This document shows, in pieces, positions 3,001-8,200 of a stretch of DNA of 64,000 bases (the first letter of the stretch is position 1; each line of letters starts with the position of its first letter). Position numbers: made by a program. This stretch comes from Escherichia coli. Its GTDB lineage: Bacteria > Pseudomonadota > Gammaproteobacteria > Enterobacterales > Enterobacteriaceae. The stretch lies in assembly GCF_044324785.1 (NCBI RefSeq), contig NZ_CP172127.1, one strand, 5' to 3'.

Positions 3001-6000
3001 CGAAGAGTGCCTGCCGCCACAGCAGTATGAAGGTTATCGCGAACTGAAACGCAACGCGCCAGTCGGAATGATGGTCACCAGCGGTGAGCATCACGGCACA
3101 CTGCAATCTTTCCGTACGCTTTCAGAAACCGGCATCGACATTATGCAGCCGGATGTTGGCTGGTGCGGTGGGTTAACCACGCTGGTGGAAATTGCCGCAA
3201 TCGCCAAATCCAGAGGGCAACTGGTGGTGCCGCACGGTTCGTCTGTTTACTCTCACCATGCGGTGATCACCTTCACCAATACGCCATTCAGCGAATTCCT
3301 GATGACCAGCCCGGATTGTTCAACGATGCGTCCGCAATTTGATCCGATTCTGCTTAATGAGCCAGTGCCGGTGAATGGTCGTATTCATAAATCAGTGCTT
3401 GATAAACCCGGTTTCGGCGTCGAACTCAATCGTGACTGCAATTTGAAACGCCCCTACAGCCACTAATCATTCCGGGCGTTGCTGTGACAACGGTAACGCC
3501 CACACATTCTAAGGAGCTTTTTATGAGCACCGCTTTGCTTGACGCCGTGGTGAAGAAAAACCGTGCGCGTTTAATTCCGTTTATGTTGGCGCTGTATGTG
3601 CTGGCGTTTCTCGACCGTTCGAATATCGGTTTTGCCAAACAGACCTACCAGATTGATACCGGGCTGAGTAATGAAGCTTATGCGCTGGGAGCAGGCATTT
3701 TCTTTGTTGTATATGCGTTTCTGGGTGTTCCGGCGAATCTTTTGATGCGCAAACTGGGGGCAAGAACCTGGATTGGTACGACAACACTGCTGTGGGGATT
3801 TCTTTCGGCAGCCATGGCATGGGCCGATACTGAAGCGAAATTTCTGATCGTTCGTACTCTGCTTGGTGCTGCGGAGGCCGGGTTCTTCCCTGGTATGATT
3901 TATCTCACCTCGCAATGGTTTCCGCAGCGTAATCGCGCCAGCATTATGGGGTTGTTCTATATGGGCGCACCGCTGGCGTTAACACTGGGATCACCGCTTT
4001 CCGGCGCGCTGCTGGAGATGCATGGATTTATGGGGCATCCCGGCTGGTTCTGGATGTTTGTGATTGAAGGATTGCTGGCAGTCGGCGCTGGGGTATTCAC
4101 ATTCTTTTGGCTTGATGACACACCGGAGCAGGCACGTTTTCTGAGTAAACAAGAAAAAACGTTGCTTATCAATCAACTGGCAAGTGAAGAACAACAGAAA
4201 GTGACTTCTCGATTGAGCGATGCGCTGCGTAATGGCCGAGTCTGGCAACTGGCGATTATCTACCTGACCATTCAGGTGGCGGTTTACGGATTAATTTTCT
4301 TCCTGCCGACCCAGGTTGCTGCATTGCTGGGGACAAAAGTGGGCTTTACGGCGTCGGTGGTCACCGCCATTCCGTGGGTTGCGGCCTTGTTTGGGACCTG
4401 GCTTATTCCGCGCTATTCCGATAAAACCGGCGAACGGCGTAATGTCGCAGCGCTGACATTACTGGCGGCGGGCATTGGTATTGGTCTCTCCGGGCTGCTT
4501 TCTCCAGTACTGGCGATCGTAGCGCTGTGTGTTGCAGCCATCGGGTTCATTGCCGTGCAGCCGGTGTTCTGGACGATGCCGACACAACTTCTTTCCGGTA
4601 CGGCGCTGGCTGCGGGGATTGGTTTTATAAACCTGTTTGGTGCAGTGGGCGGGTTTATTGCCCCGATCCTGCGCGTGAAAGCAGAAACGTTATTTTCCAG
4701 CGATGCGGCGGGATTACTGACGCTGGCAGCGGTGGCGGTCATCGGTTCGCTGATTATTTTCACTCTGCGTGTAAATCGCACTGTTGCGCAGACCGACGTG
4801 GCACATCATTAAATAGTTAAGGAACACGATGAACGCATTATTAACCAATCCCTTTAAAGAACGTTTACGCAAGGGCGAAGTGCAAATTGGTCTGTGGTTA
4901 AGCTCGACTACTTCTTATATGGCAGAAATTGCCGCCACTTCCGGTTATGACTGGTTGCTGATTGACGGGGAGCACGCGCCTAACACCATTCAGGATCTTT
5001 ATCACCAGCTACAGGCGGTAGCACCCTATGCCAGCCAACCCGTGATCCGTCCGGTGGAAGGCAGTAAATCGCTGATTAAACAAGTCCTGGATATTGGCGT
5101 GCAAACTCTACTGATCCCGATGGTCGATACTGCCGATCAGGCACGTCAGGTGGTGTCTGCCACGCGCTATCCTCCCTACGGTGAGCGTGGTGTCGGGGCC
5201 AGTGTGGCACGGGCTGCTCGCTGGGGACGCATTGAGAATTACATGGCGCAAGTCAACGATTCGCTTTGTCTGTTGGTGCAGGTGGAAAGTAAAACAGCAC
5301 TGGATAACCTGGACGAAATCCTCGACGTCGAAGGGATTGACGGCGTGTTTATTGGACCTGCGGATCTTTCTGCGTCGTTGGGCTACCCGGATAACGCCGG
5401 GCACCCGGAAGTGCAGCGAATTATTGAAACCAGTATTCGGCGGATCCGTGCTGCGGGTAAAGCGGCTGGTTTTCTGGCTGTGGCTCCTGATATGGCGCAG
5501 CAATGCCTGGCGTGGGGAGCGAACTTTGTCGCTGTTGGCGTTGACACGATGCTCTACAGCGATGCCCTGGATCAACGACTGGCGATGTTTAAATCAGGCA
5601 AAAATGGGCCACGCATAAAAGGTAGTTATTGATATCAAAGGCCCATGGGGATCGGCTGTGGGCCTGTGTTAATTAGTGGTTATTCGCTGCCAGATCGGCT
5701 TCGCTTAGCTGGGTGGCCGCGAGCACCAGGTCACGATCAATGCCCTGTTCCAGCATGCGCAAAGCAATTTTAATGGCTTGTTCATGCATGCCTTCCTGCC
5801 AGCCAATTTGGTGTCCTTCCTGCCGTAGCCGTTCAGCAATAGTCATTAATCTCTCCTTTTAATAACAGTTCGGAATATCAGCATCAGTGAGTTGGGTTGT
5901 CGCCAGCACAATCTCACGTTCAAAGCCCTGTTCCAGCATGCGCAAGGCAATTTTAATGGCTTGTTCATGCATACCTTCTACTTTGCCTTTCTGCAAACCC

Positions 6001-8200
6001 TCCAACTTCCCCTCCTGCCAACCTTCAATCTTACCCTCCTGCCAGCCAATTTGATGCCCTTCCTGCCGCAGCCGTTCAGCAATAGTCATTAATCTCTCCT
6101 TTTGTAGTGGTGAACGTTCGGCAATCTCCTCAATAAAACGGGTGAAACGGGAGGTATCGCCGCATTGCAGCAGATAATTAAACAGCGTTTGTAGCTGGCT
6201 GTCATTAGTGAAGCCTCTAACCAAAAGCGTGGTGATCCTGTCGACCATACCGATTAAATCGCGGTCGCGAATATGCTTTTGAATCAGTTCAAGCAGAGCT
6301 ATACGCCGATGTTGCATGATCTCATCGTCAGGTACGATGGTGATATCCACCAACGGAAAAGCTTCGGTGTACAACTGCCGGGCAAGTTGCGGATCGTCAA
6401 ACTCATCCAGCCAGTTGAGTGAGTACGGGTAAGGCGAGGTTTCGCCATGATAAAACAGCAACGGCACCACCAGCGGGACTCTGTCATAGCCTTTGTCCAG
6501 GTGACGCTGCATGGCGGCAGTGGCATAGCGCATTAGCCGAAAAGCCATATTCTTTTCTGCAGAGCTTTGATGTTCAATCACGCAGTAGATATAACCGTCA
6601 CCGTCGCTGGTTTCCACGGACCACAAAACATCCGAGTAGTAAGCGCGTAAACTTTTTTCAATAAAACTGGTGGGTTCCAGGCGTAAGGTTTGCAGGTTAC
6701 AAAGCTTGCGCAGTGGTTCTGGTAAATGTATTTCGAGAAAATCCCGTGCGGTTTCGGGTGTGAACATAAAAGTTTTAAATACCGCATCATGCGGGGAGGA
6801 GGTTGTTGATTCGGTCATGGTTGTCCGTCACCTGATATTTATGATGACGCGACATTACGGTTATCCCAGGCCTTTGACATCTGCCAGTTTCAGCCTTTGC
6901 GAGACGTTTTCAGAGGAATTTTCACTGCGTTGCAACGCATACATTGGGCACGGAATCGTGTACGCAAAAATGCCCGGTAACCACATGCTTACCGGGCATC
7001 AGAAGGGAGTTTAAGCCAGCGCCTGGGCCAGCAGCGTAATCGGATGTTCGCAGCGAAGACTTGTGGACATCTCAATCTGCCATTTACAGGTTTCGCAGTC
7101 GGTAACCACCAGATCTGCGCCGCTTTCTTCTATCTGACGGAACAGTGGTGCGCCGATGGCTTGTGAGGTGGGGTAGTTCTCTTTTTTGAAACCGTAAGTA
7201 CCTGCAATACCGCAGCACTGGGAATCCAGCACCGTTAACTCAAGTCCCGGGATTTTACGCAACAGCTCCAGGGTGTAGAGCGTCCAGCCCATTTTTTCCA
7301 TATGGCACGGAGTGTGATAAACCACTTTCAGCGGCAGCGGTTTCAGCGGTAACGTTTTGCCTTCGTCCAGCTTGCGCCACAGCCAGCGGGTCGCCAGTTC
7401 GATATGATCGCGCAAGCCTTTGTTGTCGACATTCAGCACTTCTGGGTATTCGTCGCGCAGGGCAAATGTACAGGTTGAGGAGGTGGCAATCACCGGAATG
7501 CCTTTTACTCCCACTGCTTCGCGGATCGACTCTACATTTGTGATTGCCTGTTTGCGTGCTTTATCGGTAAAGCCGTTGGCGATTAGCGGTACGCCGCAGC
7601 ATTTTTCTTTGCTGAGTAGTTGTACACCGGTACCCATTGCGTTGAGCACTTTAATTAAATCTTTACCTAACTGCGGATGGTTGTAGTTAACGAAGCAGCC
7701 GTGAAAGAAAGCGACCTGGTCTTTATACTGCGCCTGCTGAGCCGCCACGCTGCGATACCAGCGACGGAACGTGCCGAAGGAATATTTCGGTAGCGTGCGG
7801 CGATGATCGATTTTTAACGCCGCATCAAGCAGCTGACGCACCGGTTTCAGCGAGGTAGCGGTGTTGACGATTGGTGCGAACGGCGTGGAAACGCTACCCA
7901 TCAGGTCGGTATGACTCAACACAAAATTACGCAGCGACGGGCGCGTGGTGTCATATTTCGCCCGCGCGCGCTGGATGATATCGCCAATCTTCACATCGGA
8001 CGGGCAGGCGACTTCGCAACGTTTGCAGTTGATGCAATATTTCAGCGCCTCGTCATACAGTGCGCCATCTTTCAAACGCAGACGCTCGCCATCCGGCCCG
8101 GCCTGTTTTGGCCCGGGATAGCTGGGATTCACCCGGCTCACCGGGCAGGCGGTGGTGCAGATGGTGCACTTAATGCAGTTTTCGAAGCTGGTGTCGTTCA

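Follow-up and report, generated by a model that had tools for sequence, protein, structure and literature searches.

What is a free-standing copy of a nuclease's own C-terminal tail doing directly behind the gene that encodes the nuclease? The question is raised by a locus in the 64,000-nucleotide stretch of Escherichia coli DNA analysed here (assembly GCF_044324785.1, contig NZ_CP172127.1; hereafter the window), in which rpnE (yfaD; minus strand, 5859..6818) is followed on the same strand by ypaA (rpnE_Ss), an open reading frame (ORF) of 57 codons at 5673..5846. Small proteins that derive from the C-terminal domains of Rpn nucleases keep these enzymes in check, and the nucleases have a link to phage defence, as a first-pass annotation of this DNA had stated and as has been published: Zhong et al. 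2023 (PMC10400941) identified the small C-terminal proteins, RpnS, as antitoxins of the long nucleases, RpnL. With a probability of about 0.7, we conclude that the locus is the chromosomal E. coli rpnE-ypaA, a member of the Rpn 'gene-within-a-gene' toxin-antitoxin family with three possible products, in which YpaA is a non-cognate RpnS paralog.

The 319-aa product of the long ORF, RpnE_L, is the Rpn-family protein RpnE/YfaD, in agreement with the first-pass annotation. Residues 8-209 match positions 1-202 of the 203 in the Pfam model PF04754 (Transposase_31 / YhgA-like; E=8.5e-88), and the NCBIfam equivalog model NF007418 for RpnE is matched with 710.8 bits against a cutoff of 583. The RpnA model NF007361 gives 416.6 bits, under its cutoff of 583, and therefore the protein is not RpnA. 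The PF04754 match corresponds to a PD-(D/E)XK nuclease domain at 6192..6797 (minus strand, computed from the ORF start at 6818), which is followed by the C-terminal three-helix HTH_Rpn_C tail. The catalytic positions are all kept (D11, D63, E82, Q84, R94 and PDDE163-166), where the list is that of the RpnA residues mutated by Kingston et al. 2017 (PMC5350276). RpnE_L is thus predicted to be a DNA nuclease of the PD-(D/E)XK type with a three-helix domain at its C-terminus. The segment sits between glpC and yfaU/rhmA and is matched in 5421 of 5426 complete E. coli genomes, the closest being that of strain N3 with 99.9% identity.

A partner for this nuclease appears to be encoded within rpnE itself. 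The in-frame internal cistron rpnE_S (5859..6089, minus strand) starts at Met244 (ATG 6089..6087) and codes for a 76-aa product that is the predicted cognate antitoxin. A Shine-Dalgarno (SD) sequence, AAGGAGAG, is located at 6094..6101, 6 nt 5' of the ATG on the same strand. It is part of a 14-nt sequence, AAAAGGAGAGATTA, that is identical 5' of the Met244 codon and 5' of the ypaA ATG (5846), and invariant in every locus examined. In the Ribo-RET data of Meydan et al. 2019 (10.1101/520783), each of the five rpn genes shows in-frame internal initiation peaks. These authors also first noted the similarity of the internal RpnE product to YpaA, which amounts to 98% identity in K-12. Translation from the Met244 start in K-12 is documented by Ribo-RET and by sequential peptide affinity (SPA) tagging (10.1101/520783; PMC10400941). 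RpnE_S would necessarily be identical to RpnE_L in its tail and in the number of its 4-aa repeats. By homology with RpnA, RpnB, RpnC and RpnP2, it is expected to bind RpnE_L via the long first helix and to hold the nuclease inactive in an L2S2 complex.

A sequence picked by eye, ATGACA-N17-TTTAAT (6177..6205, minus strand), is a candidate sigma-70 promoter. It is located within rpnE, some 85 nt before the internal start, and could plausibly drive a short rpnE_S-ypaA transcript; start sites obtained by differential RNA sequencing (dRNA-seq) within all rpn genes are cited by Zhong et al. (PMC10400941).

The small gene downstream has the features of a free-standing RpnS copy: an ORF and SD of its own, a position directly downstream on the same strand, and homology to the RpnE tail. 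Its coordinates are those given at first pass, and the ribosome-binding site proposed there is real, being the 14-nt sequence described above. The ypaA start lies 12 nt past the rpnE stop. In the junction (5847..5861, minus strand) the stop codon TAA (5861..5859) falls in or beside the ypaA SD (GGAG 5856..5853), and translational coupling of rpnE and ypaA is possible. Judging from this position, YpaA would be translated from its own copy of the ribosome-binding site, probably from a short transcript shared with rpnE_S, and possibly in a coupled manner. Zhong et al., who renamed the gene rpnE_Ss, detected RpnE_L, RpnE_S and YpaA by SPA tag in K-12, where the YpaA allele has 61 residues and is also backed by ribosome profiling; for RpnE and YpaA the data in that paper concern expression alone (PMC10400941).

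The match to the RpnE C-terminus, claimed previously from inspection, is borne out by alignment. YpaA aligns with RpnE residues 244-316 (BLASTP E=3e-26) with 44 of 53 aligned residues identical and one 20-residue gap, and with positions 244-308 of NF007418 (E=8.7e-29). It also matches RpnA_S of PDB entry 7TH0 (phmmer E=1.4e-4). The AlphaFold2 model of YpaA, with a predicted local distance difference test (pLDDT) score of 78.9, consists of helices at residues 3-33, 38-45 and 49-54. Foldseek returns 7TH0 as its best match (probability 1.00; template-modelling score 0.74, normalised to the target). The label PF27070 HTH_Rpn_C is attached to YpaA in precomputed annotation only; our Pfam-A search with YpaA, run with a library without PF27070, gave no significant match. 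Matches of YpaA to designer pentatricopeptide proteins in PDB sequences were rejected, being sums of many repeats of which each is insignificant.

The two tails differ in their repeats. The RpnE tail carries an array of dodecamer (4-aa) repeats at 5973..6044 (minus strand; delimited by Tandem Repeats Finder and protein alignments), five units beyond ypaA, which holds the base WQEG unit only. Tandem Repeats Finder reports a period of 24 with 2.2 copies at 5991-6044. The array starts at residue 16 of the internal product, within the 8-20 residues past the initiating Met that are typical of RpnS proteins. In Zhong et al. (PMC10400941), RpnC_S protects only against RpnC_L of equal repeat number and a mismatch of one repeat abolished neutralisation; according to the accompanying commentary (PMC10400984), repeat mismatch blocks complex formation and inhibition in trans. 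The window YpaA does not match its neighbour (0 extra repeats against 5), and if the rule can be transferred from RpnC to RpnE, the 57-aa protein should not pair productively with the first helix of RpnE_L, which is 20 residues longer. Since its first helix is shorter by this length, YpaA would be non-cognate: a selected and expressed RpnS paralog, rather than the antitoxin that restrains RpnE_L in this strain.

The toxin/antitoxin-like or decoy arrangement put forward by the first-pass annotation therefore survives in part. The free-standing C-terminal paralog is there; a role of ypaA as the antitoxin of RpnE is not supported, given the unequal repeats and the Met244 start, which had been overlooked. 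As in the rest of the Rpn family, this start, with the same SD, is predicted to make the cognate RpnE_S, so that ypaA would not be needed for a toxin-antitoxin pair.

The structure of the repeated DNA indicates what was duplicated. The direct repeat had been placed at 5700-5860 and 5900-6110; the repeat is confirmed, with these limits being approximate only. The upstream copy, from the SD through most of the tail, occupies 5877..6103, and the downstream copy, comprising the SD and ypaA, occupies 5694..5860 (both on the minus strand; repeat families D1 and D2). Positions 5781-5860 match 6024-6103 at 90% with an offset of 243 nt, and 5694-5795 match 5877-5978 at 84% with an offset of 183 nt. This similarity is far above chance, and the change in offset implies a 60-nt indel, exactly five dodecamer units. 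Since the same 14-nt sequence precedes both starts, the duplicated unit is a whole small cistron that runs from its SD to its stop codon, and one copy of it is already part of rpnE.

The two copies have diverged as a mosaic, with an overall synonymous divergence (dS) of 0.54 and a dN/dS ratio of 0.16. All 5 differences within codons 1-19 are synonymous, and the helix-2 segment is 98% identical in nucleotides. The final 18 aligned codons, which encode helix 3, are 67% identical and contain 10 nonsynonymous changes.

These data also bear on the proposal that rpnE is a transposase of the ISNCY type and that ypaA and the direct repeat are debris of transposition. The names invite it: the rpnE product is called 'ISNCY family transposase' in RefSeq and NCBIfam and its Pfam family Transposase_31, and a 13-nt inverted repeat (5631-5643 / 6869-6881, GATATCAAAGGCC / GGCCTTTGACATC, 92% complementary) flanks the whole rpnE-ypaA unit. 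However, about 0.5 such pairs are expected in 1.3 kb, which puts the inverted repeat at chance level, and one of its arms lies in the terminator hairpin region. The duplicated unit spans exactly one S cistron, and the locus keeps its chromosomal site between glpC and yfaU in nearly all complete E. coli genomes, as counted above, and in other Escherichia species. Moreover, Zhong et al. (PMC10400941) and the commentary (PMC10400984) describe Rpn proteins as not being conventional transposases, without flanking terminal repeats or target duplications. We consider this proposal barely credible.

To place the window among other strains, an 84-nt query over the junction of the rpnE stop and the ypaA start, counted when covered at >=80%, was run against the 5426 complete genomes. 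Of these, 3131 (~58%) have the tandem junction. Among the matches listed, the remaining genomes with any match to the query (2271 of 5402) match only the half that is common with the internal start. Roughly 42% of complete E. coli genomes are thus without ypaA. A scan of metagenomes for the junction returned 3 contigs only, one of them K-12-like, and sampling was then widened via genomes encoding exact YpaA alleles. The resulting sample of 84 E. coli-type loci comprises RefSeq haplotypes chosen by length class, the neighbourhoods of seven exact YpaA alleles and the three metagenome contigs.

In this sample 72 of the 84 loci are tandem, and the ypaA ORF and its SD are intact in all 72, with lengths of 57+4n residues only. 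Outside the repeats, the ypaA core has 15 synonymous and 6 nonsynonymous variants, with a ratio of nonsynonymous to synonymous polymorphism (pN/pS) of 0.071; for the core of the rpnE tail this ratio is 0.15. The exact 57-aa protein is indexed in 858 blocks of a public sequence collection, and in all ten of the places listed it follows a 319-aa RpnE.

That ypaA is a non-functional leftover of the duplication, i.e. a pseudogene fragment, might be supposed from its annotation as 'incomplete; missing N-terminus' by the Prokaryotic Genome Annotation Pipeline (PGAP) in N3 and many other strains, and from its loss in many lineages by a deletion that is demonstrably easy. The intact reading frames, with length shifts by whole 12-nt units only, together with the low pN/pS, argue against decay despite these flags, so the refutation foreseen in the first-pass annotation, a decaying pseudogene, did not materialise. 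The K-12 allele is also translated, and the window protein is widespread in exact form. A mere leftover is very unlikely. The purifying selection and the strict conservation of the N-terminal helix and helix 2 suggest instead that YpaA does something: it may retain some binding, confer immunity to RpnE variants of the ancestral type, act as a decoy or have a regulatory role.

The public annotation of ypaA is itself inconsistent. PGAP/RefSeq lists a normal coding sequence in K-12, 13C1065T and 323_BP0014, with either 'hypothetical protein' or 'Rpn/YhgA-type helix-turn-helix domain-containing protein' as its name. For the majority of the other tandem strains, N3 among them, ypaA is tagged as a pseudogene that lacks its N-terminus and begins directly at the rpnE stop, despite an intact ORF and SD (loci compared: L002, L003, L007-L011, L016, L017, L019, L021, L022 and window 5673-5846). 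In view of such calls, the description of the ORF as unlisted was fair.

The mismatch of repeats seen in the window recurs in the other haplotypes. Extra repeats range from 0 to 8 in the RpnE tail and from 0 to 6 in YpaA, and the RpnE/YpaA pairs are 5/0 (window), 0/1 (K-12), 5/1, 1/4, 1/2, 8/4, 8/6, 6/2, 5/2, 3/1, 6/4 and 8/0. Equal counts occur in 0 of 12 valid length combinations and 0 of 23 distinct protein pairs (one of them from the truncated-tail locus L071), which represent 72 tandem loci. A single YpaA allele occurs with RpnE of 303, 319 and 323 aa, which implies that the two arrays change independently. In a 17-pair sample the RpnE array is the longer one in 15; the two arrays simply differ in their size range.

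The most serious objection to a non-cognate YpaA is that it could be a genuine second antitoxin or decoy, restraining the adjacent RpnE_L and adding to the dose of RpnE_S. Its homology to the RpnE tail, its RpnS fold as in 7TH0, its place directly downstream on the same strand behind a strong SD, and the detection of the protein in K-12 are all in accord with such a role, as is the fact that its first 19 residues and helix 2 are those of RpnE_L, maintained under purifying selection with synonymous-only differences. Against it are the unequal repeat numbers, in the window and in every sampled tandem haplotype, combined with the finding that a mismatch by a single repeat sufficed to abolish protection in RpnC (PMC10400941). 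In addition, helix 3 has diverged, with its 10 nonsynonymous changes in 18 codons, and the ~42% of E. coli genomes and all five outgroups described below do without ypaA. We regard a second antitoxin as rather unlikely.

Several points nevertheless weigh against our assignment of YpaA as non-cognate within an active toxin-antitoxin locus. Both copies strictly conserve the N-terminal 19 residues as well as helix 2, and YpaA could therefore still contact the same partner. The repeat-matching rule was worked out on RpnC only, with a change of ±1 repeat (PMC10400941). The AlphaFold model of the 76-aa RpnE_S has a pLDDT of about 50 over the repeats, and at this low confidence it cannot tell whether they lengthen helix 1. 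We had also considered the absence of matched pairs as a sign of selection and dropped it: shuffled counts give a mean of 1.1 matches, and the permutation P=0.28 (P=0.44 in an earlier sample) is not significant. The internal promoter was found by eye; a consensus scan, which demands an A as the second base of the -10 hexamer, gave no promoter. Finally, when overexpressed, K-12 RpnE was the sole paralog without toxicity, SOS induction or recombination (Kingston et al. 2017, PMC5350276), although the construct still made RpnE_S and the K-12 allele has two rare substitutions.

These substitutions, L107Q (3 of 79 loci) and P155L (2 of 79 loci), lie in the N-domain of RpnE of K-12 MG1655 (L001). 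As K-12 RpnE is the only inactive paralog and carries these rare changes, its inactivity may not extend to alleles like that of the window. In five other loci (L040, L041, L042, L045 and L071) rpnE is broken by frameshifts or premature stops and the small tail ORF is still callable; these are either real inactivations of the nuclease in which the small protein is kept, or sequencing errors.

The outgroups indicate which of the two tails is the older. A degenerate pattern on the internal start yielded five representatives at the species level: E. albertii, E. whittamii, the cryptic-clade Escherichia sp. E1V33 and Escherichia sp. MOD1-EC7003, and a deep 'E. coli' lineage. Each has a single tail cistron ending in …DRDLVLA(A/T)TQLSEADLAA…, with the hairpin and yfaU coming immediately after it; the tail of the deep 'E. 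coli' lineage is a hybrid. L041 was dropped as an outgroup since its flank 'divergence' of 9.5% is probably a mis-registration by frameshift, its tail DNA being essentially identical to E. coli ypaA. The tails of all sampled single-copy E. coli strains end in ypaA-type sequence as well. Because the five outgroups and the single-copy E. coli carry one ypaA-type tail, the tandem is derived and arose within E. coli. By these comparisons, ypaA keeps the ancestral tail and position, and it is the nuclease-fused copy that has diverged in helix 3 and expanded its array.

The earlier suggestion that the direct repeat could mediate deletion is borne out by the sampled loci. In L015 the eight-repeat array of rpnE is joined to a ypaA-type end, and 0 of 1229 flanking nucleotides differ from the 8/4 and 8/6 tandem strains; this is a clean repeat-mediated deletion fusion. 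L018 has 0 N-domain differences from a 1/4 tandem strain. That downstream tail copies can vanish by deletion or fusion has been reported by Zhong et al. (PMC10400941). The two copies would thus serve as substrates for recombination, by which ypaA may be deleted or the tail of the nuclease swapped.

We tentatively extend the non-cognate assignment to a two-cassette locus, a possibility that we hold at clearly less than even odds. YpaA would be the ancestral RpnE tail, orphaned as the nuclease gained a diverged and repeat-expanded one, and the free cassette, kept by purifying selection though mismatched in every haplotype seen, would have its own role. If so, it could neutralise incoming RpnE_L variants of the ancestral type, or function as decoy or sensor towards a phage factor directed against RpnS. 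A single recombination step between the two cassettes would then switch the specificity of the nuclease tail, as L015 and L018 appear to show.

The rpnE-ypaA arrangement and its general interpretation are already published, and no new system is described here. Our additions are incremental: the frequency of the tandem (~58%), the single-copy outgroups, the 72 of 72 intact copies with pN/pS of about 0.07, the unmatched repeat counts and the L015 fusion. The locus exemplifies a recently recognised principle, in which the antitoxin lies within the gene of its toxin and a hypervariable 4-aa repeat sets the specificity. The puzzle has been sharpened, as more than half of E. coli keep a separately encoded, repeat-mismatched copy under purifying selection. 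Its answer would show whether repeat number gates RpnL-RpnS pairing in trans, and how defence-type nucleases shift their specificity. In practical terms, automated annotation gives both genes a wrong label, that of a transposase to rpnE and that of a pseudogene to ypaA.

The surroundings of the locus are metabolic (glpC and the yfaU/yfaV rhamnonate genes) and contain no defence island. PADLOC v2.0.0 gave no relevant match at the locus, with a database that may predate Rpn models. Between the convergent ypaA and yfaU (rhmA), a GC-rich hairpin at 5639..5665 was listed as a terminator-like site on the plus strand and has no strand assigned. As minus-strand RNA it folds with -12.1 kcal/mol (z=-2.3) and is followed by UUUGAUAUC. 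The hairpin is conserved in other Escherichia species directly 3' of the single-copy tail, and is probably a bidirectional terminator. On the repeat array, matches to FliH (NCBIfam) and Yae1_N (Pfam) were discarded, since they are far under the cutoffs and reflect the compositional similarity of E/K/G/L-rich helices. Elsewhere in the window, and unrelated to rpnE-ypaA, Rfam models score above gathering for the small RNA MicF (46462-46555, minus strand, 116.8 bits) and for naRNA4/CssrE (54595-54677, minus strand, 60.4 bits).

A few sampled loci are irregular. In the metagenome contig SKEH01015850.1 (L025), a highly divergent 57-aa RpnS-like ORF at 440-613 (MTIAERLQEVGRRKGKREGQHAEALRIAQRMLDDGIARETVVKITGLTADEIAALAH) follows an rpnE with 8 extra repeats across the usual junction. 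Its DNA downstream of the junction is found in 0 of the 5426 complete genomes; the 1.3-kb contig is probably chimeric, or else carries a different, rare cassette at the place of ypaA. The metagenome contig OEQM01000798.1 (L023) has, at the ypaA position, an ORF of 140 aa in total with an rpnE-like five-repeat array and unrelated sequence past …MLEQGI, which suggests an insertion, rearrangement or assembly chimera at the helix-2 segment. In the single-copy loci L006, L013 and L014, a truncated yfaU, listed as a pseudogene, adjoins yfaY. The missing yfaV, yfaW and yfaX imply a second deletion next to the rpnE locus.

Among known systems, the K-12 rpnE-ypaA is the nearest to that of the window, with the same locus, the same flanks (glpC, yfaU), the internal start with its SD and the free tail copy downstream. 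It differs in lengths, with an RpnE of 299 aa (0 extra repeats) and a YpaA of 61 aa (1 extra) compared to 319 aa (5) and 57 aa (0), and in the two N-domain substitutions of RpnE described above. The RpnA, RpnB, RpnC and RpnP2 pairs share with RpnE the PF04754 nuclease with conserved catalytic residues, the in-frame internal start, and a small protein of three helices, the first of which carries hypervariable 4-aa repeats. For these four, growth assays, SOS induction, cleavage in vitro and complex formation, together with a crystal structure of RpnA_S, demonstrate toxicity, neutralisation and the complex, and phage protection was shown for the plasmid-borne RpnP2 only (PMC10400941), whereas RpnE is likened to them from sequence and models. 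Their L-S pairs are strictly gene-within-gene, and rpnE-ypaA adds a third, separately encoded protein of the S type.

A tail cistron duplicated downstream is likewise present as rpnC_Ss behind rpnC in some E. coli (PMC10400941, Fig. 2I), although it belongs to a different paralog and, according to the phylogeny of that paper, is of independent origin. Free-standing DUF4351 (PF14261) and HTH_Rpn_C (PF27070) proteins resemble YpaA in being small, stand-alone and homologous to Rpn C-terminal domains. An analogy drawn by Zhong et al. reaches further, to the specificity subunits of EcoR124I and EcoR124II, in which the number of 4-aa (TAEL) repeats in a helix tunes specificity, as in the Rpn tails. 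The proteins and their functions are unrelated: the repeats of the EcoR124 subunits set the spacing of the DNA target, while those of Rpn are thought to set the pairing of partners.

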